Assembly: GCA_951406725.2 (NCBI GenBank)
Contig: OX597818.1
Coordinates: 24,180,001 to 24,244,000 of the forward strand
Direction: 5' to 3'
DNA: 64,000 nucleotides
From: Octopus vulgaris
Lineage: Eukaryota
Shown here one piece after another: positions 1,522 through 59,570 of this stretch (positions within the stretch are counted from its first letter, which is position 1; the number at the start of each line of letters is the position of its first letter). The notes beneath the pieces were generated by a model that was not told where the DNA came from, made no database searches, and was given only the letters and a program-made list of their open reading frames with translations. The translations under genes and the position numbers were made by a program.

Positions 1522-1523
<2 letters not shown>

Positions 1524-3015
1524 TTTAGGGATAAATGAAGGCTCTGGTATTCAGCATGCAAGCATGAAAGAGAAAATCAGGAAGGAATGTTATAGGAGAG
1601 TTCGTTCAGTCCTGAAATCTGAACTAAATGCACGTAACAAGGTGTTAGCTATAAATTCCTTAGCAGTTCCAGTTGTTACTTATAGCTACAATGTGTTGAA
1701 CTGGAATATGAGTGAAGTAAAGAATATAGATGCTGAGTTGTAATAGGATGCACCACCCAAAGGCAGACGTAGATCGCCTTTACTTTCCCAGAGCCCAAGG
1801 AGGTCGAGGCCTGATCCAATTTGAACTAGCTTACAAAACAACCACAATTGGACTGGCCAAATATCTCGAAATATCGAAAGACTGGATGCTAAAGCTTGTG
1901 GAACATCACGAGAGACGAAAGAAGCTTCATTCTATCATAAAGGAAAGCAAAAAATTTGCTATTGAACTCGTGCAGGATACCCAAACTGAACAACCCGAGG
2001 GAAGTACGGCAACTATTATTGCAAAGAAGGTGAAAATGATGGCAATGAAAAAAGCGCACGAGCAATTGGCTGATAGGTGGGAGGAGAAACCTCTGCACGG
2101 CAAATATGTGACCCGCAGCAAACAAGCTGATGTTGACCAGAAGCAAACCCATCAGTGGCTACGGAGCTCAGGGCTAAAAGCAGAGAGCGAAGGTTTCATC
2201 CTGGCTGCTCAAGATCAAAGCCTATTAACCCGGAACTACCAGGCCAATGTGATGAAAAATGGAGCAGACCCAAAATGCCGATTCTGCAACGACATGATTG
2301 AAACAGTGGACCACCTAATCTCTGGATGTAAAGTCTTAGCACCAGTGGAGTATAAATTAAGACATGACAGAGTTGGCCAATATCTCCACTGGCTAATAAG
2401 TCGGCATTACAATATCAAAACTGCCGACAAGTGGTATAATCACCACCCTGAGGCTGTAACTGAAGGAGAAAATGTAACCATTCTGTGGGACTTTCCAGTA
2501 CATACAGACCGAACCATCAAGGCCAATAAACCAGATATTGTTGTGAAAGACCAAAACAATAAAGTTTGCTTATTGATCGACATGAGCATCCCCTGTGATC
2601 ATAATATCTCAGCGAAAGAGTTTGACAAGCTCAGAAAATATAAAGACCTACTCATTGAAATTGAGAAAATGTGGCATCTCAAGGCGGTTACAATACCAGT
2701 GATCGTAGGAGCACTAGGAATGATCAAGAAGGGAACCGAAAATTATATGAGAATGATCCCTGGCTTACCATCCCTGCAAGAAGTGCAAAAAATTGTCTTA
2801 ACTGGTACATCACACGTATTGAGAAGAGCATTGTCGATGTGAGAACTGTTGCTGCTCATGTATTTTAATTTAACTTAAAAAAAAAAAAAAAAAATGAACG
2901 AACTACTGAGTTTGGTTTAATGGCCTACCAATGTATACTATGAGTTTCTTTGCCCTAGGAGTCGGGAAGACACTCGGCAAGAGATGGAAGCAGATTTGAA
3001 AGAAGAAAAAAAAAG
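1522..3015 (+). mobile_element. Second, distinct R4/Dong-type RLE retrotransposon, 5'-truncated at the end of RT
   Basis: From 1522 it reads YLGINEGSGIQH...AINSLAVPVVTYS, with a frameshift/deletion near 1730. ORF 1730-2842 follows: RLYFPRAQGGRGL, CRFC-x8-HLISGC, RHD, KPDIVV...LLIDMSIP...KYKDL. It is followed by (TAA)n/(GAT)n at 3016-3088. Confidence 0.92.
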
Positions 3016-8589: not shown

Positions 8590-11500
8590 GATTACACCAA
8601 ATCTAAAGATCACCCATATATCAGGAACAGGACACACCAGCAACATCTTAATACCAGGCATGACCAACCCCACAAAACAACAATAGGATAAGAAGCACAC
8701 CACATACCAGGCATTACTACCCCATTACCCAAAACTACTGGTCCTTATCAAACAAAAGAACAGCACAAAATAACACTAGGTCAAGAAACACCCTGCATAC
8801 AAGAAATTTCAAACAAAAATATGCTGCATACAGAAATGTTACACACATCACTAACCAAAACACTCATAGACATCCACACACATACATAGCAATCTAAGGC
8901 AACAGTACCACCACTTCCCGGGACCAATTCCATACAACCTCACAGACAGCTCATACAAACAAAACTGCAACCAACATTTTTTTAACCCCAGAGCAGAGAC
9001 ACCAGGACACAAGTTGGAACCTGGTGATCAGGAAAAACCAAAGTTAATTAACTTCTCAACTAAAACTCTTTCAAGCACAAAGATAAACATCCTCTCAAAA
9101 GGGTTAAAATTCATCCCAACACCATGCAGAATCAACCAAAATGAAGTGAAGGACAGTATAATAGAATTCTGTAGAAAATTAAGACTCGCAGAAGCATTAA
9201 CCAATTACAATACTAAAGATGATTCACTAGTCAAAAACAAAAGTGAACCCCCCCCACCACCACCACCACAAAGGAAGAAATAAAAATCTTGATGAATCCT
9301 GCAACCACATTGAGAACTTTCCCTTCCACACCATGTATAAACAGAATATTACCTCAAACTTTAGCACTACACAATGGAAGGAACTAACAGAATTTCAAAA
9401 TAATGAAGATATAACGATTAAGGAAGCAGATAAGGGAAGTGTGGTGGTAGTAACGGACACATCATACTATAAAAATCTAGTAATCTCCATGCTTTATGAA
9501 AGTCAACATTACCAAAAAATCACAAAATACAACCCTCCAAAAATAATGAAAACCCTATTCTCACTAATTAAAACCTATGGAAAAGAACTGACAACCAAAA
9601 AATTGAGCATTTAACAAACTTTAAATGCAAACCTAGCCTATTCTATGGTCTACCAAAAGTCCACAAAAGAAAGATTATAAATGAAACCATAAAAAATCAC
9701 CAAAGACATACATACATACACCAGGGGACCTAAAATTGTGACCCATTATAGCTGGCCCAGTATGTGAAACACAGACTAAGTCTGTTTATGGACATCCTCC
9801 TGAAACCCTTTCTTAAACACATCAATAGTTATATCAGAGATGACTTAGACATGTTAATCACCTCCCAGAAAAGTCAAGGAAGAAACAATCATGGTTTCAT
9901 TTGATGTGATTAATTTAAATACCAGTATACCTCATAATTATGGACTAGAGGCAATTCAGTTCTGGCTGGACCAATATCCAGAAGAAATACCGGAAAGGAT
10001 TAGCAAAGAGTTCATAATTGAATCCATTGAATTCATCCTACTGAACAATCATTTAATGTTTGATAACACTTTTTATCAACAAAAATCTGAAATTGCCATG
10101 GGTACTAGGGCAGCCCTGGTCATTGCCCAACAATGGGTTATCTGGAAATAAGAATATACCAGGAATCTTTATCTACCTTTAGAAACTCTCTTTCCCAATA
10201 CATAAAAGAAAATTTGAAAAGATTCCTGGATGACTGTTTCATCCTTTGGAATGAAAACAGACAAACTCCTGGAATTCAAAAGATTATTGAACAGCATCAA
10301 CCCTAACATACAATTCCCGATGGAATACAACCAAGAGGAGCTCCCTTTCTTGGATATATTAGTTAAAAAAATAAACCTAAAAACAGAAACGGACACATTT
10401 TACAAAACCACAGACACCAAACGATATCTACTTTTTAATTCCTGCCACCCAAGACACACCGAAACAAACATCCCATTCAACCTTGCACCATAGTATCAGA
10501 AAAAAATATCAGACTTTAGACTGCAAGAACTCAAAAACACCCTCATTGACAGATACTACCCAGTCCAACTTATAGAGGATGGAATCAGACTTGCAACACA
10601 AATCGACATAAAAACCTTACGAAAAGTACAATACAGCAACACACCCTCCCTGAAAATACTGCTGAACATAACCATGTACAACCCCAGAAACAAAGAAGCC
10701 TTCACCATCATCACCCAAAATCTACCAATGCTACATAAGGACCCCAAACTAAAGGAAATTTTACACATACATAAGATCCTTGAAAGCCACAAACAACCAA
10801 AGTCACAAAGAAAGATCCTCACAAAGGCAAAATTATTTTCTAAAATAACAGATGCAAAAGTAAAAAAATGTGGTCAACCAAATTGTGCAACATGACTCAT
10901 CATTCTAGAAGGATCAGAATTCCTTATTAAAGAGGACAAAAATTCAAAATCAAATCTGACTTTACTTGTACCTTGGAAAACCTGATTTATGTTATAAGAT
11001 ACTTGGGCTGCCACCAGAATTACATAGAGTCCATGGGATTATCGCTCAGGCACAGATGTACTCTGCACCGACAGCAGATTGTGTTCCCAGAATACAGAAT
11101 GATACCCTTTAGTGAACACATTGACAGATGCGCAAAATAACTGCTACCACAATTTGTAATTTTTCCATTTTGTCAATGTGCTATTGGAATACCAATACAA
11201 GTTAGATTAAAAAAGGAAACCTACTTCATTGAAAAATATAAGCCAAAACTTAACCAGTTCTAGCATTTTCAAATAAGGAAACTTACCTCATTGAAAAATT
11301 GTGGTGTTATGAGCCAGGTTGTGTTGTAGAGATGGATCGGAAGTTAGGGAGTAGGCATGTACTGTTGGAAGTGGGGCCTGTGGGTCCTACCAGAAGTGCT
11401 GTGGTGGGCATGCTGCATCAGAGAAGCGTGAGAAGTCAGTTGGCAGTGGACAGCGCATTAGAGCAGATATGTGAGACTGTTCAACAATGGATAGCGTATG

Positions 11501-12321: not shown

Positions 12322-12662
12322 CAAGACAGTGTGTGAGAGAAAATTGTGATGTCACAAGAGAGAAATGTGTCTGCATGGATGATGGTGCACTTGCATTTAA
12401 TGATTCTGCAAAGAAACGGGCTTGGAGAAGCCATTATGAAAGGCTGCTGAATGTGGAGAATGAATGGGAGGAGGAGAGCCTGCCAAATGTTGGCTCAGTA
12501 GAGGGACCTGTTACCTGAATAGAGAGCACCCTGACAGATAAAGCAATTAAGGATATGAAGTCAGGAAAAGCTCCTAGTCCATCAGGAATCACTGCCGAGA
12601 TGCTTAAACTATCTGGTGGTGTGGGTTATGGCCTAGTCACCTGTGTTATGAACCAGGTAGTT
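12317..12662 (+). mobile_element. RTE-clade LINE internal fragment (pre-RT region)
   Basis: [18 protein letters not shown]...AIKDMKSGKAPSPSGITAEMLK. Confidence 0.8.
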
Positions 12663-12832
12663 CATTGCCAATCACTTTATAGAGTATATTGGATGCATTA
12701 TAACATGACACCAGCATTAAAGAGATTGCCTCCTCAAAGCTTGCAAAGACTGAACTAGGATCCTCAAGCAACATTCTTTGACTGCTTTTCACTTAGCCAT
12801 AACACCACAGAAAAGACTATATATTAGTCATA

Positions 12833-13516
12833 CGATATAGTGTATATTTAAACACATAGAGAATCCACTTATAGGGATTCTATGCATTAGAAAGAACAGC
12901 TAGGTTCTATGACCACAAAAAATTGGGATAAAAATTCGAGAGGAATAAATTTGGAAATGAAAAACATTTACCATCTAGTATCCTGGACCAATTGGTTTCT
13001 AATCATGTTTTAGCGAGTCATGGAGAACTTTTTGACTAAAATTTTTTTACACGTTAGACCACTGGAAATGTAAATTTTGATTGAATGCTTTTAATTTTAA
13101 TTAAATTCCATTTCCCTTTGATATGATTAAATATTGTAAGTTTTTGGATAATTTTCGGTTAATAAGTTGGCGGTTTTTTATTGTAGCCAACGAAGGACTG
13201 CGTCTGCGCAGTAAATTTGAAAAGTTAGTTCGTATAAACACGAGACAGGTAGCCTTGTTTGTCTCGTGTGGATATGTTTAACACTAGGTCGGACCTGCTG
13301 AAGAAAATCAAACCTTGTGAGTTCTCTATGACCCACTAAAACATGATTAGAAACTAATTGGTCCAGGATACTAGATGATAAATGTTTTTCATTTCCAAAT
13401 TTATTCCTGTCGAATTTTTATCCCAATTTTTTGTGGTCATAGAACCTAGCTGTTCTTTCTAATGCGTAGAATCCCTATAAGTGGATTCTCAATGTGTTTA
13501 AATATACACTATATCG
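12833..13516. mobile_element. MITE with about 200-bp terminal inverted repeats and TA TSD (Tc1/mariner-type target)
   Basis: 12833-13029 is the near-perfect reverse complement of about 13320-13516. TA lies at 12831-12832 and 13517-13518. Confidence 0.88.
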
Positions 13517-14399
13517 TACATACATACATATATATAAATATTTACATGTAATATAAGAGCAAGTAGTTATTACATTAGAATTTTTTCAGAGGACATTTCA
13601 TAGGAGGCAGTATCCTATACCACATGCCAGCAAAGGATGAACAAACTTGTTAAAAAATCTCAACCTGGCAATAAGTGGTTTGATATCTCACATTGATTCT
13701 ATATATCCTTGTTCATATTAGAGATCAGCGTAGGTGTATATGTAGTATTATTAGAAAAGCTTTGGCAAGGTAACCATCACATATAATGTGAGCTGCAATA
13801 ATAAGGAGGATCAGTATAAAATATATTTGGATTTTGAATTCTTCTCTTTAATAGCATGTGTTCTTTTATGTCTGGTATGTTACACACTGTGCACAAGTTT
13901 AGGCTGCAGAATTAAGAGGCAAATGTAAAGTTGGCTTTCCACAAACTAACTTAACTTGAAACAAATTATTTTTGCAGAATCTTCAATAAAAACATTTCCT
14001 TTCTTTTCTGTGGTGTTATGGCTAAGTGAAAAGCAGTCAAAGAATGTTGCTTGAGGATCCTAGTTCAGTCTTTGCAAGCTTTGAGGAGGCAACCTCTTTA
14101 ATGCTGGTGTCATGTTATAATGCATCCAATATACTCTATAAAGTGATTGGCAAATGAACAAAGACAACCCGGACTGAAGAGGGTTTCTTTCTTTTTCTAG
14201 AAAATTCGACTTTGAAGCAAACAAGTGGTTTTATGAACATATATTCATTTTAGTCTTTCATCAAAATTATCTACTTCAAAATTGAGAACAACCTGTCAAC
14301 CTATTTCTGAAGAAGAATTAAATGTCTTTCAAGAACCAGAGATTTCTTCCAGAGAGACAGAAATATTAAAACTTTGAAAACCATAAAACAGGAAAACAT

Positions 14400-26186: not shown

Positions 26187-27975
26187 TCATCATTATCGTC
26201 GTTTAACATCCACTTTCCATGCTGGCATGGGTTGGATGGTTTGACTGAGAACTGGCTAGCCAGGAGGCTGCACCAGGCTCCAATCTGATTTGGCAAGATT
26301 TCTACAGCTGAATGCACTTCCTAATGCCAATCACTCTGGGAGTGTAGTGGGTGCTTTTTACATGACACCAACCCAGGAGCCAGTCAGGCAGCACTGGTCT
26401 CAACCATGTTCGAATGGTGTTTTTTATGTGCCACCAGCACAAATGCTGGTTAGGGCAGCACAGGCATCAGCCACGACTATGATTTCACTCAGTTCAACAG
26501 GTCTTCACAAGCATGGCATATCGCCCAATGATTGAAAGGTGCTTTTTAATGAGCTAGTTATGTGAAATTGGCATTGGCCATGACTACAATCTCACTTGGC
26601 TTGTTGGGTCTTCTCAGGTATGGCATTTCTCCAAAGGTCTTACTTGCTTGTCATTGCCTCTGTGAGGCCCAACATTTGAAGGTCATGCTTCACCACCTCA
26701 TCTCATGTCTTCCTGAGTCTACCTCTTCCATAGATTCCCTCTAATGTTAGGGTGTGACACTTCTTCACACAGCTGTCCTCATCCACATCACATGACCATA
26801 CCAGCCCAGTCATCTCTCTTGCACACCACATCTAATACTTCTTATGTCCAACTTTTCTCTCAGGGAGCTTACATTCTGTTGTGTATGCACACTGACATTA
26901 CACATCCAGCAGAGCATACTAGCTTGATTTCTTTCAAGCCTACACATGTCCTCAGCAGTCACAGCCCATGTTTCATTATCATGTAGCATGGCTGTTCACA
27001 CACTAGGTGTCATACAGTCTACCTTTCACTCTGAGTGAGAGGCCCTTTGTTACCAGCAGAGGTAGGAGCTTTCTGAACTTTGCCCAGCCTGTTCTTATTC
27101 TAGCAGCTATGCTCTCAGAGCATTCATCCCTACTACTGACTTGGTCACCTAGGTAATGGAAGCTGTCAACTACTTCTAGTTTTTCCCCCTGGCATGTGAT
27201 GGAATCTGTTTTCTGTACATTTTTGGTGTTTATTACCTGTGCATCTGCCACATACAAAAACTATCTTCCCAGTTAACCTTCCTTTGATATAGCTGCACCT
27301 TTTAAGTCTCCATAGCTTACACTGGGTACAGCATATGAAGTTTTTACCTACACCTTTTCTACAGACTGAGCTGGGCCATCTACCTGAAGGGAGTTGTGAT
27401 TTGTCTGCCTTCCTACTTACTACAACTTTGGTTTTTGCTAGGTTAATTCTAAGGCTCTTAGATTCTAGACCTTGCTTCCACACCTGAAACTTCTCTAGTT
27501 CTGGTAGTAACTCTGTTATTAGAGCAAGGTCATCAATATAGAGGAGCAGCCTGTCTTGAATTTCTGTTATCTGGAAGACTATGATGAACAAGAGGGGGTT
27601 GAGAAGTGATCCTTGATGAACCCCCTACTTCTACCCAGAATTCTTTGTTATACTTGTTGCCAGCCCTCACCTTACTGACAGCATCCCTGCACATGGCTTG
27701 TACAGCTCTCACCAACCACTCCTCTATCCCCAGTTTCTACATTGATAAGGGATCGGGGGGACCCTGTCAAAAGCTTTCTCCATGTCAACAAAAGCCAAGT
27801 ACAGAGGTTTATCTTTGGCTAGGAATTTCTCCAGTAGCTGTCTTACCAGAAATATAGCATCAGTGGTACTTCTCTCTGACACAAACCCAAACTGCATCTC
27901 ATCTAAACTAACTCTCACCCCAATTAGTTGGGCTATGACCCTCTCTGTGACTTTCATCACCTGCTCCAGTGTTTC
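26187..27975 (-). mobile_element. RTE-clade LINE, 5'-truncated, with RT, 3' UTR and (GAT)-type tail
   Basis: QFGFVSERSTTDAIF, AFVDMEKAFDRVP, LLYIDDLALI, FHYLGDQV, ARIRTGWAKFRKLLPLL. Confidence 0.9.
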
Positions 27976-28568
27976 TGTATACATTTATGCATTGTGTGCT
28001 GTGTGTGTATAAGGATACACAGATGCATGCATGCACATGCAAACATTTATATATACACACATGCTCATGTCTGTGTCTATATGTACATACATTGCTATGT
28101 ATGTTCTTATGCTTGCATATTTATGCATCACTGTGTACAGGTATCTGTATACATATGCACATACATCTGCTGATGCTTTCTTTGCTAACAATAAGTCTGT
28201 GAATATATATGCATACACTTGTATATGTGAACAGTTATCCAATTGTTACTTAATATTCCTTACAACAGGCAACTAATATTCTGATAGATACTGTAGGTGG
28301 TTTGTATTTTGATGTTTCTGCATTGACATTCATTTTTGTGCTTTAGTTTGGTTACTCTGGTGTTTAATTTCTGTTGGTATTTTTATGCTGTCACTGCTGT
28401 TGCGGTGTAATTGGATGTTTACATGTTGCAGTGAGACCATTCTCAAAAATGAACACATTCTGGTAGCTGAAATGTGATATCGCTTATTTCTTTAGTTTAG
28501 CAAGCACATTCATTGTATAAATATATTTTTCTGAATTGTACAAGGGGCACATACCAAAAACATATATA

Positions 28569-29191
28569 CTAGATGTACTTGCCATGACCCATTGGGTTAC
28601 AACTACTCCAAGTTAAAAATGTCGATGCACAACGGAAAAGGAAAAAATACTATTTCGAATATCATGTAATAAAATTCTTAAATAATACAGTTCTCCTGCC
28701 TTTGGTGTGACAAAGGTAGGAGAACTGTATCACTTTCTTCTTTGCCATTCTTTGTTACTACTGTTCCCTGTGAAATATATGGATACTTCAGCATAAAGTA
28801 ATGTTTTTTGCGAAGTCATCATTCTGTCAATGTTGTTCTCATATGTTGTTCATTGACAGCCTCATTATTTCTGAGCAATATTCTCTGTTCATCTGGTAGA
28901 TGAACTTGCAATCTAACTATTGCAGGTGCTCTTTCATGAATTGAAAATCCAAAAATGGATGCAACTGCTTCGGATGGTCCAGTGTACCTGCCCATTAGAT
29001 ATTGACTAATTTCGTTATCATTATTTATTTGAACAGCAGCTTGGTCATTTCCTTTCAGTGTGTACTTGAGGACGTACTTAACTGACCTCACTGAGGCAAT
29101 GATTTCAAGGTACAACCCATTTGTCGTTTGTTTTTCCATTCTTATGAGATTCAGTTCCCCCCATTGCAACTGATCTTCGTCTATAAAGAGA
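28569..29191 (-). mobile_element. Short Helitron derivative with Rep-helicase linker fragment
   Basis: VKYVLKYTLKGNDQA...EISQYLMGRYTGPSEA...VRLQVHLPDEQ. The 3' end has the hairpin ACCCA-A-TGGGT followed by CTAG|T at 28572-28569. A possible A|TC 5' end lies at 29191. Confidence 0.75.
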
Positions 29192-29200
29192 TAGTCTCTC

Positions 29201-29518
29201 TGTCTGTTTTTCTACCTTTTGTTTAAGATAAATAAAATTGTAATTTTCCCCTTTAAGAAAAAAAAAAAAAAATCAAGTACCTGTGATTCAAAAATATCTC
29301 ATAAAAATATAGGAAGAATTTCTATCTTTCAAGCCCACAGCACTCCAAAAGTTGTATAAGTGATTAAGGGGAGAAAAAAGAAAAGAGAAAGGGTGGACAG
29401 ATGATGACTTTTTGAAATGCTGGCATTTTCAACTTGATTTGTTTTTTCTTAAAGGGGGAAATAACTATTTTATTTGTAATCTTCATCATCTTAATCACAT
29501 GGTAGGAAAACAGACAAA
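29201..29518. repeat. Old MITE-like element with diverged inverted ends
   Basis: 29201-29280 (tgtctgtttttctacc...cccctttaagaaaa...atcaagt) mirrors 29432-29518. Confidence 0.55.
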
Positions 29519-32761: not shown

Positions 32762-33731
32762 TAATTACCACTCTCAACAAACATTAATTACTAAGTATTA
32801 ATTGTAAAAATCATTCACAAATACAACTGTATACATGCATATTCACAAACCGATTGTTAAGGAAGAAAATATCCATTTTCACATATACATATATGCATAA
32901 ACAGATACATGTACACACTTATGCTTAATTATACATACTTATGAACACGTGTATGCATATATATATATATCGACACACACAAAAAATGATGTGTGTGCAT
33001 GTGTTTGTGTATGTATATATACAAATACAAATGCATAAAGTGTTCTGAAGCTTGACAGCTAATTCAAACTGTTTTGAATCAGTAATCCAAATGGTTGTTC
33101 AATGAATTGGATTATGAAGAAGTAGAGTTATTCTTTTGGATATAAAAACTACTACTTGTCACTTTGTATACATCTATTAGCATTTAATATTAGTGTAACC
33201 ACTGTTCAGTTGCAAATAATGAATCAATATACCATTCAGTTTAATAATAAAATTGTTTATTCAACACTTTTGCTGCAAAAAAAGCCAAACCTGTACAATT
33301 ACTGCTTAGTTCAATGCCAGAATTTGAAATTTCATTTTCTCATCAGTTTGTTATCTGTTAATGATATTATATATGGAATTGGTGTAGGTTTAGTCTTAAC
33401 TAGACTGGGTCTCCATGTTTGAGCTCCAAGAAGCTTTACAGATTTATCATGTTTCTGAAGTCCCACAAAAATGAAACACTAAAATTACATCTCCTAATGT
33501 ACATGACATATTTAGGTTCTCTTTTGTGAAACTTCCTTTTTTTTTTCACAATATATTTCACTTTTGAAAACAGGAAAATTATAAAATTCCAGAGTCAGCA
33601 AGTTACACAATAAATTGAATGGACAAAGTTGGCAAGATACTTTATTAGAATCTTTTCTCAAAATGATCAGAATTCAATTTTAAAGTTGAATTCTAAAAAT
33701 GTATTTGAGGCAGAGGAAATCTAATGGTAAA

Positions 33732-33737
33732 TTTATT
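33732..33737 (-). terminator. Candidate polyadenylation signal AATAAA of the selenoprotein gene (second candidate at 33641-33646)
   Basis: tttatt on the plus strand, about 125 nt downstream of the SECIS core on the minus strand. Confidence 0.45.
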
Positions 33738-33841
33738 GTAGTTAAATACCAGTGAAAAATATATTGATATGCATCAAAATATATTTTTGAAATAGTTATA
33801 ATTAATATAATAAAAATAAATTCAAATGAATAGGGAAATCT

Positions 33842-33924
33842 GATGCACCAACAAAACAAAAATCAGGCGATCTAATCAGTGATTATTCTGTTTTTTAGAT
33901 TGCCATCATAAGTCTATATCCATC
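33842..33924 (-). promoter_or_regulatory. Type II eukaryotic SECIS element
   Basis: The minus strand reads ATGA-T-GGCAATCTAA-AAAA-CAG-AATAATCA-CTG-A-TTAGATCGCC-TGAT. This gives the AUGA/UGA quartet (33909-33906; 33865-33862), a 10-position helix II with 9 Watson-Crick pairs, unpaired apical As and a CAG/CTG mini-stem. Helix I is weak. Confidence 0.9.
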
Positions 33925-34853
33925 TATTTATTTGATTGAAAGTACAGATCATGAAATTAAGATAGAGGTAATTATAAATATAATATAAGTAAGAATCTAA
34001 ATTTACAATATCTTAAAACATTCTAGAAATTTGTTTTTCATTAATTTAAATCTAAGCAATATCAGTATATAGAAAAATATCTCTAAGATGGAGATAAAAT
34101 TTTAATATTTCTGACAATGATTCAATATAAACCACCACAGTATCTGTACACAAATAGACTAAACAACAAATTATATTAAGATATTCTATTGGTTCTATCA
34201 TAGTTCAATAGGTGTTACAGAGGAGGTAAACTTTTATAATATCAAACTATATGAAATTATTGTAAATATTTGTAGAGAGCTAACAATAAGAATAGTAACA
34301 TAGAAGAAGAAGAAGAAACAGAGCCTAGATACAAGATCAGTATTCAATTAATCATAGAAATAGATGGCTAGAAGGCTGTTTGTTGGTTTAGATCAGTTAT
34401 TTGATTTCTGTAGGAATACAACTCAGATACAGAAGCAGCAAATTATTATTTTCCATTTAACATCCTTTGGAGCTTGTCACGCTATATGTAGACAAGGTTT
34501 CATTTAACTTATTGGAATGGTTAGGATTATAAGATAATATCAAGTGTGGGTAAGGAAATGTCCTAGAGATTCCGATGTTCCAAATTAGGAGAGAAAAAAT
34601 AATAATAGTAACTTAACAGTAATTACAAGTCAAAGGATTTTTAGCATAATCCAAATATATCCAAGACTTTCACAAATGCACTTATATATGTGCACACATT
34701 TATTTATATATCTGCTAGTACTTATAAGTAAATATATACAAACAAAAATTAGTAAACTACGCAAGGAAACTTTTGATCCGTTGTAAAAATAGGACTGATA
34801 AATGGAATACATTTAAACTGAACTGCTCTGAACTGCATAATCCCACAGAAAAT

Positions 34854-34936
34854 TTAACCTCATCCTCCTCTGGTATTGGATCGTCTAGGAGGGCGATAAG
34901 TTGATCCACCACCGTGACCCATCAATGGACGGTGAC
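34854..34936 (-). CDS. SELENOS: Selenoprotein S-like, last coding exon with Sec TGA at 34862-34860
   Basis: Acceptor tttgcag| then (G)GT CAC CGT CCA TTG ATG GGT ... AGA GGA GGA TGA GGT TAA = GHRPLMGHGGGSTYRPPRRSNTRGG-U-G-stop. This matches the SelS C-terminus (human [27 protein letters not shown]), and a SECIS lies downstream. Confidence 0.9.
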
Positions 34937-35039
34937 CTGCAAATGTATAAGAATAAAATTCATTTAAAGTAAACTGAAACCACGCAGAGAGCAGATATAT
35001 TTTATTTTTCAAATTTTTCAGCACAACAAAATGAATGCA

Positions 35040-35170
35040 CATCAGGACGATGATTGGGATCATGTGGATGAGAAAGGCGCGATCCAGAGAGGAGTGGACA
35101 GCGTGTTGTGACCAGCGGTGTCAAATGGACACCTGATGGACTGGTCGGTCAAGGTGATCAAGGTGATGAC
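35040..35170 (+). mobile_element. Short LINE 3'-end fragment (RTE-like) in the last intron
   Basis: GC-rich island reading GIMWMRKARSREEWTACCDQR, with a short repeated tail caaggtgat x2. Confidence 0.45.
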
Positions 35171-35344
35171 ACTATTTATTCTAACTATTTGTGAAACACA
35201 TTGTCATGAGAATAAATTGCTGGACTAGCCATAGTGTCATGAGCTTATAATTTACTAGACAAGGAATATACACCAACTATGAAAATAGTTGCTTGAACCA
35301 TTATTAATAATAATATATATATATATTAATATAAAAAGGAAAAA

Positions 35345-36200
35345 AGAAAAGTTAGTCAAAAAGGAATAGTAGTGTGCATTGCTTTTAAGTTAATCAGCAT
35401 ATTGGTGAAATAAATGTGGGTGGGAAGGGAATTATAGAGGATTACACTTCTGGGAAAAAAAGGGAGGTGATGGATATATTAGTTGGAGTGGGTATGCAAC
35501 TAGCTAATTCAGAGAAATGTAACATGTTGGTGAGTGAATCTTTGTATTCTTTTGGATGTGGTCTAGAATGTGGTCAAAATGTCAGTTGTAGGCAGGCAGG
35601 CTTTGAGGCCAATGGATGTCTGTATCAGTTCTGTAGGGAGTCATAAGGGTAGCTGATTTCAAATGAGCTATGGATGGGTAGCTGCCTTCAAACGAGCTAT
35701 GAAAGATGGAAAGTTGCACAGTGTCTTCCCATATCTTTACAATATTACTATTGCTGGACATACAAGGGAGGGACAAAATCCAAATGTAAAGGAATTTCTG
35801 AAAGTCATTAACTAAAAGAACCATGACTTTTGAGGATTCAATTAATGTCCTTGGATACTGTGAGGGAATGGCATCATTAAGTCACATCCTGAGAGGTTTC
35901 TGCCACTACAAGGAATTCCACCTTCAGAAGATATGTGATCTGTAAGATAGACACCTAGGATGTTGGCATATTATGCCAAGTGAACCTATGAGTTCTCTGA
36001 TGAAATTCAAATGTTGATAAACACAAAGATGTTTCCATTTTAAAAGAAGGCTCTGAGCACCTTTAATTTGCTGAAGAGGGAATAGGAAGAAGCCACCTTG
36101 CATTTAGTGCATGAAAAACTTACTCTTTGAGCCATGTATCAAAACCCCCTAGCCAATTTGGGTGGGGGTAATCTCTTAAAATTGTTTGATACTGGTAAAT
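35345..36200 (-). mobile_element. Very old LINE-like remnant (CR1/Jockey-type 3' region)
   Basis: Elevated GC and weak fragments (DSLTNML, FSELASCIP, HYSFLTNF) on the minus strand. Confidence 0.3.
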
Positions 36201-36414
36201 TTCCTCTTTACTTGGAGGGAATGTTCTGTATACATGCATGTGTATTTTCATATTTATAACTGGAAATAGACTGGGGCATGATATAAATAACACATACAAT
36301 GATATGATATTCTGGACTATAACTAAACAATGGAGTTAAATAAAGCTTGAGAAACAGCCTCCAATACTGTAAGATTAATCAGAAGTCTTTCTAGACAAAT
36401 ATAAAATTACTTAC

Positions 36415-36472
36415 CATCCGAAACGTTCTTGTTTTTTGGCTTAGGTTTTTCAGGGGATTTCTCTTGGGAATT
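36415..36472 (-). CDS. SELENOS: Selenoprotein S-like, penultimate coding exon (58 nt)
   Basis: ttttattttttcaatag|AAT TCC CAA GAG ... TCG GAT G|gtaagt = NSQEKSPEKPKPKNKNVSD+G. The donor is a perfect consensus, and the phase-1 end joins in frame to the last exon. Confidence 0.82.
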
Positions 36473-36634
36473 CTATTGAAAAAATAAAAGTAACATTATG
36501 AATGCAAAATTACTTTATATAATGTTTAGCAGCAAATAAGAACTGAAATTCAATTTATATACTGATAATAAATAAATTTTAAAAACTATCTGTACGTAAT
36601 TCTAAATATTTCCACTGTTAGAAATCTCAAGCAT

Positions 36635-40864: not shown

Positions 40865-41024
40865 ATATACACATACATACATATATAGATATCCACATAT
40901 GCACAATATATGTAAAACTTTTTTAAAATTCAGTGAAGATAAGCAAAGTCTTTCGTTCTACTATAGGTTTAAGAACAAATACTTCGTAAGTTAAAAAAAC
41001 TAACATGAACATAAAAAAATTATA

Positions 41025-42145
41025 ACCCAGTGTAAGCTATGGACACATAAGAGGTGCAGCAACATCAAAGGAAGATTAACTAGGAAGATAGCTTTCGTGT
41101 GCAGCAGATGCACAGGGGCAATAGACACCACAGATGCTCAGAAAACAAACTCCATCACATGCCAGGGGGAAGAACTAGAAGTAGTTGATAGATTCCATTA
41201 CCTAGGTGACCAAGTCTGTAGTTGGGGTGGATGCTCAGAGAGTGTTACCGTTAGAATAAGAATAGCCTGGGCAAAGTTCAGAAAGCTTCTACCCCTACTG
41301 GTGACAAAGGGCCTCTCACTCAGAGTGAAAGGTAGATTGTATGATGCATGTGTGTGAACTGCCATGCTTCATGGCAGTGAAACATGGGCCATGACTGCTG
41401 AAGACATGCGTAGGCTTGAAAGAAATGAAGCTAGCATGATCTGCTGGATGTGTAATGTCAGTGTGCACACACGACAGAGTGTAAACGACCTGAGAGAAAT
41501 GTTAGACATAAGAAGCATCGGCTGTGGCATGCAAGAGAGACGTTCACATTGGTATGGTCATGTACTGTGGATGGACGAGGAGAGCTGTGTGAAGAAGTGC
41601 CACTCACAAACAGTGGAAGGAATCCAGGGTAGAGAGAGACCTAGGAAGACATGGGATGAAGTGGTGAAGCATGACCTTTGAATGTTGGGCTTCACAAAGG
41701 CAATGACAAAAGACTAAGACCTTTGGAGGTAATCTGTGACTGAGAAGACCTGGCAAATAAAGTGAGTTCACAGCTGTAACCTACACCAGTGTCACATAAC
41801 TAGCCCTCTTAAAAGTACCTTGGATTGTAGGGTGATATGCCATGCTTGAGGAGACCTATTGAGTCAAGTACATCAACATCAAAATCTGAACGTGGCCAAT
41901 GGCATGTAAAAAGCACCACCCAATTGTGGTTGATGCCAGCTTCCCTGGCCCCTGTGCCAGTGGCACATAAAAAACACCCACTATACTCTCGGAGTGGTTG
42001 ATGTTAGGAAGGGAATCCAGCTGTAGAAGCACTGCCAGATCAGATTGGGGCCTGGTATAGCCTCATGGCTTCCCAGACCCCAGTCGAACCATCCAACCCA
42101 TACCAGCATGGAAAATGGACGTTAAATGATGATGATGATGATGAC
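41025..42145 (+). mobile_element. RTE-clade LINE 3' part with 3' UTR and (GAT)n tail
   Basis: TQCKLWTHKRCS..., FHYLGDQV, RIAWAKFRKLLPLL, MLHGSETW, RPRKTWDEVV. Same family as 26187-27975. Confidence 0.9.
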
Positions 42146-46165: not shown

Positions 46166-47006
46166 TTGGGTCTTCCCATAAATAATTCAGCTTTTTCAAT
46201 TGCATGAACTAAAAGTTGGAGGGGAACAGGATAAACTACCTGCATCAACTTGCTATAAAACCAGTAATAATTTTACCTTGTGCTTATTCTTAGCACCAGT
46301 TTTGAAGAGTGCAGTTTGATTTTAACAGTTAGTTTTTCAAAGTTGTAATGGAAGTGACAAAGGAGTATATTCAGCATATTTTGCTTTATGAGTTCAATAA
46401 AGGTAATAATGCAATGGAAAGTGTGAGGAATATTAATGCAGCATATGGGGATCAGACAATAAGTGTAAGCCAGTGTCAATGGTGGTTCCAGAAATTCCAA
46501 GCTGGAAACTACAGCCTAGAAGACAAGCATTGTCCTGGAAGATCTGTAGAGCTCAGTGAATTTGTCCTGCAAAACCTGATGAAACAAAATCCCATTGTAA
46601 CTGTTGAAGAACCAGCAGAGAAGCTCGGATTTGGTCATTCAACCATTCATTAACACCTGCATGCCACCAGAAGAGTATTGTAGAAAATGAAGGAGAGTAT
46701 ATTTTAGATTGAAAAAGAACTTTGTTTATCTTAACCCTTTCGTTACCAACCCGGCTGAAACCGGCTCTGGCTCTTTAGTATAAATGTCTTGTTTTCATAA
46801 GTTCTGAATTCAAATCTTCCACCAAATCTTAGTCACAATTTATGTTCCGAACACTAGCTTAATGATAACAATGTTATTTTACTAAATTCTTTGTTATATT
46901 TAAAATAATTGAAAGAAACACAGAGCATCTCAAAATAAATACGGTAACGAAAGGGTTAATCTTGAAAAATAAAAGAAGTATAAAAGTCCCACATTATTTA
47001 TGGGAT
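46166..47006 (+). mobile_element. Internally deleted mariner element (HTH N-terminus only)
   Basis: ORF 46348-46653 reads ILLYEFNKGNNA...WFQKFQAGNYSLED..PGR. TIR cccataaataat / attatttatggga. Confidence 0.85.
46735..46955. mobile_element. piggyBac-like MITE nested in the mariner
   Basis: TTAA|CCCTTTCGTTACC ... GGTAACGAAAGGG|TTAA: perfect 13-bp TIR and TTAA TSD. Confidence 0.9.
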
Positions 47007-49749: not shown

Positions 49750-49935
49750 ACTCAAACACACACATGTAACCTATGGGTGCATAAGAGATGCAATGGAATC
49801 TTGGGTAGATTATCAGATACGGTTGCTTTCATGTGTGGCAGATGCACAAGAACAGTAAGTACTAAGAGCATGAGGGACTTAAACACTCTCAAATGCCCAA
49901 GAGGCTCTCTTGAGGTAGTAGATAGTTTCTCTTCA
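49750..49935 (+). mobile_element. RTE fragment containing the Cys/His finger
   Basis: TCNLWVHKRCNGILGRL...FMCGRC...LEVVDSF. Confidence 0.7.
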
Positions 49936-49964
49936 AGGTAAGGCAACAAAAAAGATACAGCAAC

Positions 49965-50842
49965 TGTATCTTGTTTTATAATTCACTTAAATGTTTGTGT
50001 GAAAGTGCATTTCTTACTCCAAAAAATGAGACAGTAGCAAGGATCAACCATGAATTAATTAACAAGATTCCAACAATCATTAAGAAGTACAAATCAGTTG
50101 ATTCAGTCCTTGATGAAAATCAAGCTGTCCATTACCCAACAGAGTTCCTTAATTCTCTTGAGCCACCTGGAACTCACAAACTTTTTCTGAAAGTAGGAGT
50201 CCCAATAATGCTTCTAAGAAATTTAGATCCTCCTAAATTAAGCAATGGGACAAGGTTGATTGTGAAGACATTATCATCTACTGTGCTAGAAGCTACCGTC
50301 ATTACTGGATGTGTCTCTAGGGAAGAAGTTTTCATTCTAAGAATCCCAATCAAACCAACAGACATGCCATTTAAGTTCAAATGAACATAATTTCCAGTGT
50401 GACTTTGCTTTGCAATGTGTATTAATAAAGCTCTAGGTCAGTCTTTGAAATCTACTGGCTTGCTTTTCTCATGGTCAACTTTATGTTGGTTGCTCCAGGG
50501 AAGGTAGTTTGCAACACTTATTTGTCTATGTTCCAAACCAGAAAACAAAGAATGTTGTTTACCCAGAAGCTCTTACATAATTTCCTTCAACATATGCGGT
50601 AGAATATATCTCCTTTCATAAAAGTGGTAAATTTTGTATTTTTGTTTATCATTATTATTATTATTATTTTATATTATGAATTCAGAATTGATTTCCCAAC
50701 TAAAGAATAAATTGTATTCCAATTGAAGAATAAATTGAATTTAGAATACAATTTTCTATACAACATATTTTACTTCCCCCACCCCAATATATAAAGAAAA
50801 ATTTCATTCCTGGGCAATGCTGGGTGCCTCTGCTCATACTAG
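49965..50842 (+). mobile_element. Helitron 3' fragment, PIF1-type helicase C-terminus
   Basis: LTPKNETV, YPTEFLNSLEPPG, LKVGVPIMLLRNLDPPKLSNGTRL, FAMCINKALGQSL, FSHGQLYVGCSR, TKNVVYPEAL*. The 3' hairpin-like cctgggcaatgctggg is followed by CTAG at 50839-50842. Confidence 0.9.
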
Positions 50843-58920: not shown

Positions 58921-59570
58921 CTACCGCCACTGGCTCCCGTGCCAGTGGCACGTAAAATACACCAATCTGACCGTACGACAGGCACCCATGCCAACCCCCT
59001 TGCTTGCGAAGACATGTTGGGGCAAGCGAAATCGAATTGAACCAGCCAGGTTCCCTGGTCTGGTGGTACGTAAAAAGCACTATCCGACTCGTGGCCGATG
59101 CCAGCGCCGCCTCCACTGGCTTCCGTGCCGGTGGCACGTAAAATACACCAATCTGACCGTACGACAGGCACCCATGCCAACCCCCTTGCTTGCGAAGACA
59201 TGTTGGGGCAAGCGAAATCGAAATCGAATTGAACCAGCCAGGATCCCTGGTCTGGTGGTATGTAAAAAGCACCATCCGACTCGTGGCCGATGCCAGCACC
59301 GCCTCGTTTGGCTTCCGTGCCGGTGGCACATAAAATACACCAATCCGACCGTGGCCGTTGCCAGCCTCGCCTGGCACCTGTGCAGGTGGCACGTAAAAAG
59401 CACCCACTACACTCACGGAGTGGTTGGCGTTAGGAAGGGCATCCAGCTGTAGAAACACTGCCAGATAAGACTGGAGCCTGGTGCAGCCTTCTGGCTTCCC
59501 AGATCCCCGGTCGAACCGTCCAACCCATGCTAGCATGGAGAACAGACTTTAAACGATGATGATGATGATG
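58921..59570 (+). mobile_element. Young RTE 3' UTR copy with internal 186-bp tandem duplication and (GAT)n tail
   Basis: The 3' end matches 41945-42145. Units start at 58927 and 59113, and CpGs are retained. Confidence 0.85.

Follow-up and report, generated by a model that had tools for sequence, protein, structure and literature searches.

The 3' end of a functional animal SELENOS/VIMP (SelS) gene, made up of its two final exons and its 3' UTR, most probably lies on the minus strand of the window, that is, the whole stretch of 64,000 nucleotides of Octopus vulgaris DNA that was analysed. The earlier exons of this gene would be situated past the window end, separated by a transposon-rich intron longer than 27 kb. 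Three separately rare features are ordered on this one strand: a Gly-Gly-TGA-Gly-stop coding end, seen in 10 of 1500 block-shuffled windows; a SECIS that passes a structural filter, no more than 1.35 kb downstream, seen in 7 of 1500 UTR shuffles; and a Pfam match, the only one obtained, to the end of the SelS family model. The coordinates of the features are presented in Table 1.

Table 1. Features of the putative SELENOS locus (positions counted from the first nucleotide of the window)
Feature	Position	Strand	Basis or remark
Exon A, penultimate coding exon	36472-36415	minus	58 nt, phase 0 to 1, 19 codons, Lys/Pro-rich
GT-AG intron	36414-34937	minus	1478 nt, phase 1
Terminal exon, coding part	34936-34854	minus	SelS-type Gly/Arg/Pro-rich tail; completes Gly codon
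Ser codon at the human Cys174 position	34904-34902	minus	14 residues before Sec
In-frame TGA, putative Sec codon (penultimate residue)	34862-34860	minus	Codon table; motif shuffles
TAA, inferred true stop	34856-34854	minus	Codon table
Type II SECIS	33924-33842	minus	SECISearch patterns, added filter and shuffles, folds
Two AATAAA, candidate poly(A) signals	33737, 33646 (33737-33641)	minus	Downstream of the SECIS; weak

Exon structure, recoding site and surroundings

An earlier note on this DNA had proposed two minus-strand exons with consensus splice sites and an in-frame join, and this was reproduced here: exon A and the terminal exon join to 141 nt, by computation the frame is kept, and the translation is the claimed peptide. 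Exon A is flanked by a T-rich tract and an AG acceptor upstream and by a GTAAGT donor downstream. According to a self-made, crude splice matrix run over the window, the donor of exon A ranks 8th among the 3666 GT sites of the minus strand; among the 3504 AG sites of this strand, those that serve as acceptors for exon A and for the terminal exon rank 23rd and 10th, respectively; within 33500-36600, the donor of the gene is the best one, and its two acceptors are the best and the fourth-best. The GC content is 0.40 in exon A, against 0.24 immediately upstream, and 0.52 in the terminal exon. Exon A alone presented zero matches in Pfam, so that its call depends on the splice sites, the frame and the composition. 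An alternative open frame of exon A hits a stop 4 codons inside the last exon and was discarded. The last intron of human SelS presumably interrupts the identical Gly in the identical phase.

The coding part of the terminal exon ends in Gly-Gly-TGA-Gly(GGT)-TAA, and this Gly-Gly-TGA-Gly-stop arrangement occurs a single time in the window. The penultimate UGA in a Gly-Gly-Sec-Gly-stop context, a feature of SelS membership, is present at the sequence level. It had been stated earlier that the ORF track would stop at the TGA; indeed, the mechanical ORF list closes the frame of the SelS tail at this codon. Database entries of SelS cut at the UGA have been reported for 22 of 36 sequences (PMC3628699). 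The gene model ought to continue past the TGA to the TAA, with a UTR extending to about 33620.

Regarding the earlier exons, the 27.5 kb upstream (36473-64000, minus strand) yielded none with a membrane helix or with a coiled-coil/VCP motif. On the minus strand of this region there are 350 frames of 24+ codons; Pfam presented no SelS match at E<=0.02 for 346 of them, and the other 4, which are dinucleotide repeats, were excluded; the charged frames are microsatellites or retroelement ends and none is SelS-like; and, out of 189 phase-compatible candidate exons, none of the 30 listed is SelS-like. A scan for strong donors and another for short motifs revealed no upstream SelS exon, and no other host-gene domain was found on the minus strand of 36473-64000 either. 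A single, very large intron with LINE, mariner and Helitron remnants inside it probably occupies this region. The simplest account is that the earlier exons probably lie past the window end, the intron in between exceeding 27.5 kb.

The lack of a 5' exon in these 27.5 kb and a neighbourhood with many remains of retroelements, mariners and Helitrons would also be expected for an orphan, non-expressed 3' fragment of SelS, either a partial duplicate or relic, or an assembly piece parted from its 5' exons. We consider this reading unlikely, since the splice sites, the frame, the TGA-Gly-TAA end and the SECIS pairing are intact, which is not what one would expect of a degenerating copy; moreover, long introns packed with transposons are common in animal genomes with many repeats. 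The SelS tail is not a retrocopy, because the intron is retained. The end of a functional SELENOS gene is kept as the preferred reading.

The window is AT-rich (GC 0.28-0.44), CpG-depleted (observed/expected mostly <0.4) and full of microsatellites and transposon remnants, including reverse transcriptase pieces; tRNA genes were not found in it. Two related non-LTR retroelement 3' regions with zf-RVT are located at 3-705 and 1522-2842 (plus strand). For the 370-codon frame of these regions, 418 relatives were obtained at E<=1e-20, and the named relatives of the neighbouring retroelement protein come from shrimp, cnidarians, sea star and fish, with 53-65% identity. Inverted RTE-like LINE remnants with RVT_1 matches (26187-27984 and 41004-42143) are about 78% identical over 1.1 kb. 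A Mos1-type mariner HTH (46333-46653, plus strand; E 1.8e-20) and a Helitron-like Pif1 helicase 2B domain (49926-50384, plus strand; E 1.6e-13) were also identified, and a frame at 28819-29211 (minus strand) resembles, by eye, a Helitron fragment. Broken frames at 8870-10895 (plus strand) resemble, also by eye, a Penelope-type retroelement, with no Pfam match above cutoff. The inverted near-identical segments at 12660-13029 and 13320-14159 (96-99% over 158 and 199 nt) represent a young foldback or inverted duplication. At 58924-59352, a GC-rich segment of about 186 nt is duplicated in tandem (93% identity); the CpG ratio is the highest of the window here (0.6), and each strand carries long open frames, with no credible Pfam match.

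Assignment of the tail to the SelS family

The tail encoded by the terminal exon (25-30 residues) presented a sole match among 24,736 Pfam families, Selenoprotein_S (PF06936), which had been predicted in the earlier note before the match was obtained. The match covers positions 167-192 of a model of 192 positions, i.e. the exact model end, with E 0.07-0.28; the scores obtained with this 25-30-residue query were 11.5-13.4 bits, against a curated cutoff of 29.8, and a 23-residue piece had no match. The last 16 residues were aligned by eye with the human C174-G189 loop (PMC13524514), without gaps, and presented 8 of 16 identities and 2 conservative changes. The identities include R177, P178, R180, R181 and GGUG, and the position of P183 is occupied by Asn. 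Both P178 and P183 are described as important for p97 binding in a review (PMC10650576); P178 is retained here and P183 is not.

Other searches were made with the tail as a short query and gave weak negatives. The word-indexed search among proteins of 152-2000 residues returned 1 candidate and none at E<=10; that among proteins of 71-2000 residues returned zero candidates; and phmmer, with a 30-residue query against 1.84 billion representatives, returned 0 at E<=0.001. In PDB sequences, the short query found 1 chance match (E 0.71).

The locus shares with SELENOS/VIMP the Gly-Gly-Sec-Gly end, a type II SECIS in the stop exon and a truncated form ending in Gly-Gly. With SelK/SelG (SELENOK) it shares a C-terminal Sec, a Gly/Pro-rich tail, no nearby Cys, a possible intermolecular diselenide and a Gly-Gly degron on truncation. 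On the other hand, it differs from SelK in the position of the Sec, which is penultimate here, as reported for SelS (PMC3628699), whereas that of SelK is third from the end (PMC9344019). It also differs in exon layout: in vertebrate SelK a splice site adjoins the stop, while vertebrate SelS carries the final codons and the UTR in a single exon (PMC3316567). Two GT sites near the stop of the present gene were scored and rejected as donors: a SelK-style donor directly after the TGA (GT 34859) scores -8.7, and the GT at 34846, located 8 nt into the UTR, at the offset of the SECIS-removing donor of primate SelS variant 1, scores -2.1 and is likely a chance occurrence.

A SelK, or another C-terminal-Sec protein of SelS/SelK organisation that is not SelS proper, would fit the lack of a resolving Cys, a trait of SelK; Gly/Pro/Arg-rich tails with a Gly-Gly-Sec end are common to the two families, and the window does not show the N-terminal part, which would be diagnostic. 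This possibility is very improbable in view of the penultimate Sec, of the lack of a usable splice site beside the stop and of the Pfam result, in which SelS was matched and no SelK match was found for the tail at E<=10, a level at which the HMMER filters conceal most weak matches. The earlier preference for SelS over SelK is thus borne out by the SelS-only Pfam match, the loop identities, the penultimate Sec and the stop/SECIS exon layout, and the assignment of the tail to SelS rather than SelK is supported as far as its sequence goes.

SelS with Sec in invertebrates is previously known, as is the family. One study (PMC3473315) reports it for sponge, sea anemone and amphioxus and did not find it in the limpet or in the annelid that it covered; it has also been reported in planarian (PMC3828610).

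The SECIS element and the 3' UTR

The SECIS lies 950 nt past the TGA, on the matching strand. Its core is formed by AUGA at 33909 and by the 3' core UGAU at 33865-33862; helix II has 9 Watson-Crick pairs and one A.C mismatch, with an AAAA bulge at 33894-33891; and the apex has a 3-bp apical helix with an 8-nt loop, which corresponds to type II. All the features of type II membership are present, namely the UGAN/KGAW core, 11-13 nt to the AA, a paired helix II and an apical mini-helix. The SECIS of human SelS is also reported as type II (PMC6844570). The strict, default and loose patterns of SECISearch, recoded from the supplement of PMC3753652, are all satisfied by this element.

The raw strict pattern occurs at 10 sites in the window and at 9.1 per shuffled window, which is chance level; therefore the weight of the SECIS rests on its position, on the same strand as the TGA and 950 nt after it. 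An added filter, composed of the KGAW core rule (PMC3753652), a core-anchored helix and an energy <= -5 kcal/mol, and chosen after the hit was known, retains 1 of the 10 raw sites, which is the SECIS and the sole passing site in 128 kb (both strands). In shuffled windows, the same filter passed 303 sites in 866 windows (0.35 per window).

As in other eukaryotic type II SECIS, the element presents the AUGA/UGAU core, 11 nt to the AA motif and an apical mini-helix; unlike them, its helix I is weak, interrupted and AU/GU-rich, and the element is under the Rfam reporting thresholds, with no SECIS match at E<=5 in the whole window or at E<=10 in 33700-34860. From the weak-SECIS signature described in human (PMC2761289), it has one of the two marks: the helix-II G-C pair is present and the upstream T is absent. 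In folding, the upper stem exceeds 197 of 200 shuffles in stability (z -2.6). The element had been described previously as a textbook type II SECIS about 950 nt downstream; geometry, strand and distance agree with this description, but stability does not, since the whole 88-nt element is not more stable than its shuffles (z -0.84; 38 of 200 equally good).

In a further reading, the gene is a SelS homologue whose translation truly ends at the TGA, and the hairpin resembles a SECIS by chance or is vestigial. This would be compatible with the chance frequency of the raw pattern, with the lack of an Rfam match and with an AATAAA at 34704 that could terminate transcripts before the SECIS, but it is highly improbable, given that the only filter-passing site on both strands of the window falls on the matching strand, 950 nt after the TGA, and that the Gly codon and TAA past the TGA exactly match the end of the SelS family.

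The stop and the SECIS of the putative SELENOS gene are apparently in one exon, as the splice matrix revealed no strong donor between them. The UTR distance to the SECIS is about 940 nt here, against about 335 nt in human SelS (PMC6844570). The AATAAA hexamer was observed 4 times in the 1353-nt UTR stretch, with 2.1 expected; with no enrichment, the evidence for the poly(A) signals is weak. Two of these hexamers, at 34704-34699 and 33932-33927 (minus strand), precede the SECIS core and could yield mRNA ends without the SECIS. The hairpins SL1 (SL1/PSL) and SL2, reported for chordate SelS UTRs (PMC3628699), were sought in the UTR by folding and were unsupported (z +0.06 to +1.2).

In the proposed mechanism, splicing would be followed by the binding of SBP2 to the SECIS kink-turn, and, with eEFSec and the Sec-tRNA, the UGA would be read as Sec, giving a product with a tail ending in Gly-Gly-Sec-Gly. 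Failure of recoding would leave a protein ending in Gly-Gly, which may act as a C-end degron; in mammals, such an end is reported as a degron read by the KLHDC1/2 ligases (PMC7090344). The product is predicted to span the ER membrane once, to act as an adaptor for p97/VCP and Derlin in ER-associated degradation and to carry a disordered cytosolic redox tail. The source animal very probably keeps the Sec machinery.

A probable SelS tail without the resolving cysteine

In human SelS, the loop is closed by a Cys174-Sec188 selenenylsulfide (PMC13524514). Here, the residue at the position of the human-type resolving Cys is a Ser, and the count of Cys in the 46 encoded residues is 0; therefore, the tail as encoded cannot close the selenenylsulfide loop of the human protein. 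For the same reason, the oxidised Sec would more likely be resolved between molecules than by an internal loop, through a diselenide dimer, as reported for SelK (PMC9344019), a partner Cys or a small thiol. A Cys located further upstream may serve as the resolving Cys. We tentatively suggest, as a reading of rather low probability, that this is a lineage form of SelS that retains the scaffold of the family, with no intramolecular resolving Cys and with SelK-type chemistry (an intermolecular diselenide or a partner bond), a natural form of the "open loop" of human C174A.

No description of a Cys-less SelS was found in the literature searched, which was mostly outside subscription journals. Other invertebrate SelS may likewise be without the resolving Cys; if this is true, the absence of the Cys would be the ancestral state.

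A Tyr codon at 34898-34896 (minus strand), 12 residues before the Sec, is one A-to-I edit from Cys. Editing of this codon to create a switchable redox loop is a speculation of very low probability, and would be relevant only in an animal with heavy coding-RNA editing.

Judged from the sequence, the locus appears to be a real stop-codon recoding site prone to mis-annotation, and represents ordinary known biology apart from the missing resolving Cys, without evidence of any new recoding mechanism. The maintenance of the Sec and of the loop Arg and Pro residues in a tail that lacks the Cys suggests that selection can act on the loop sequence and on the Sec independently of the Cys-Sec bond. A SelS tail without Cys would then be a natural test protein for the Cys174-Sec188 mechanism of human SelS.
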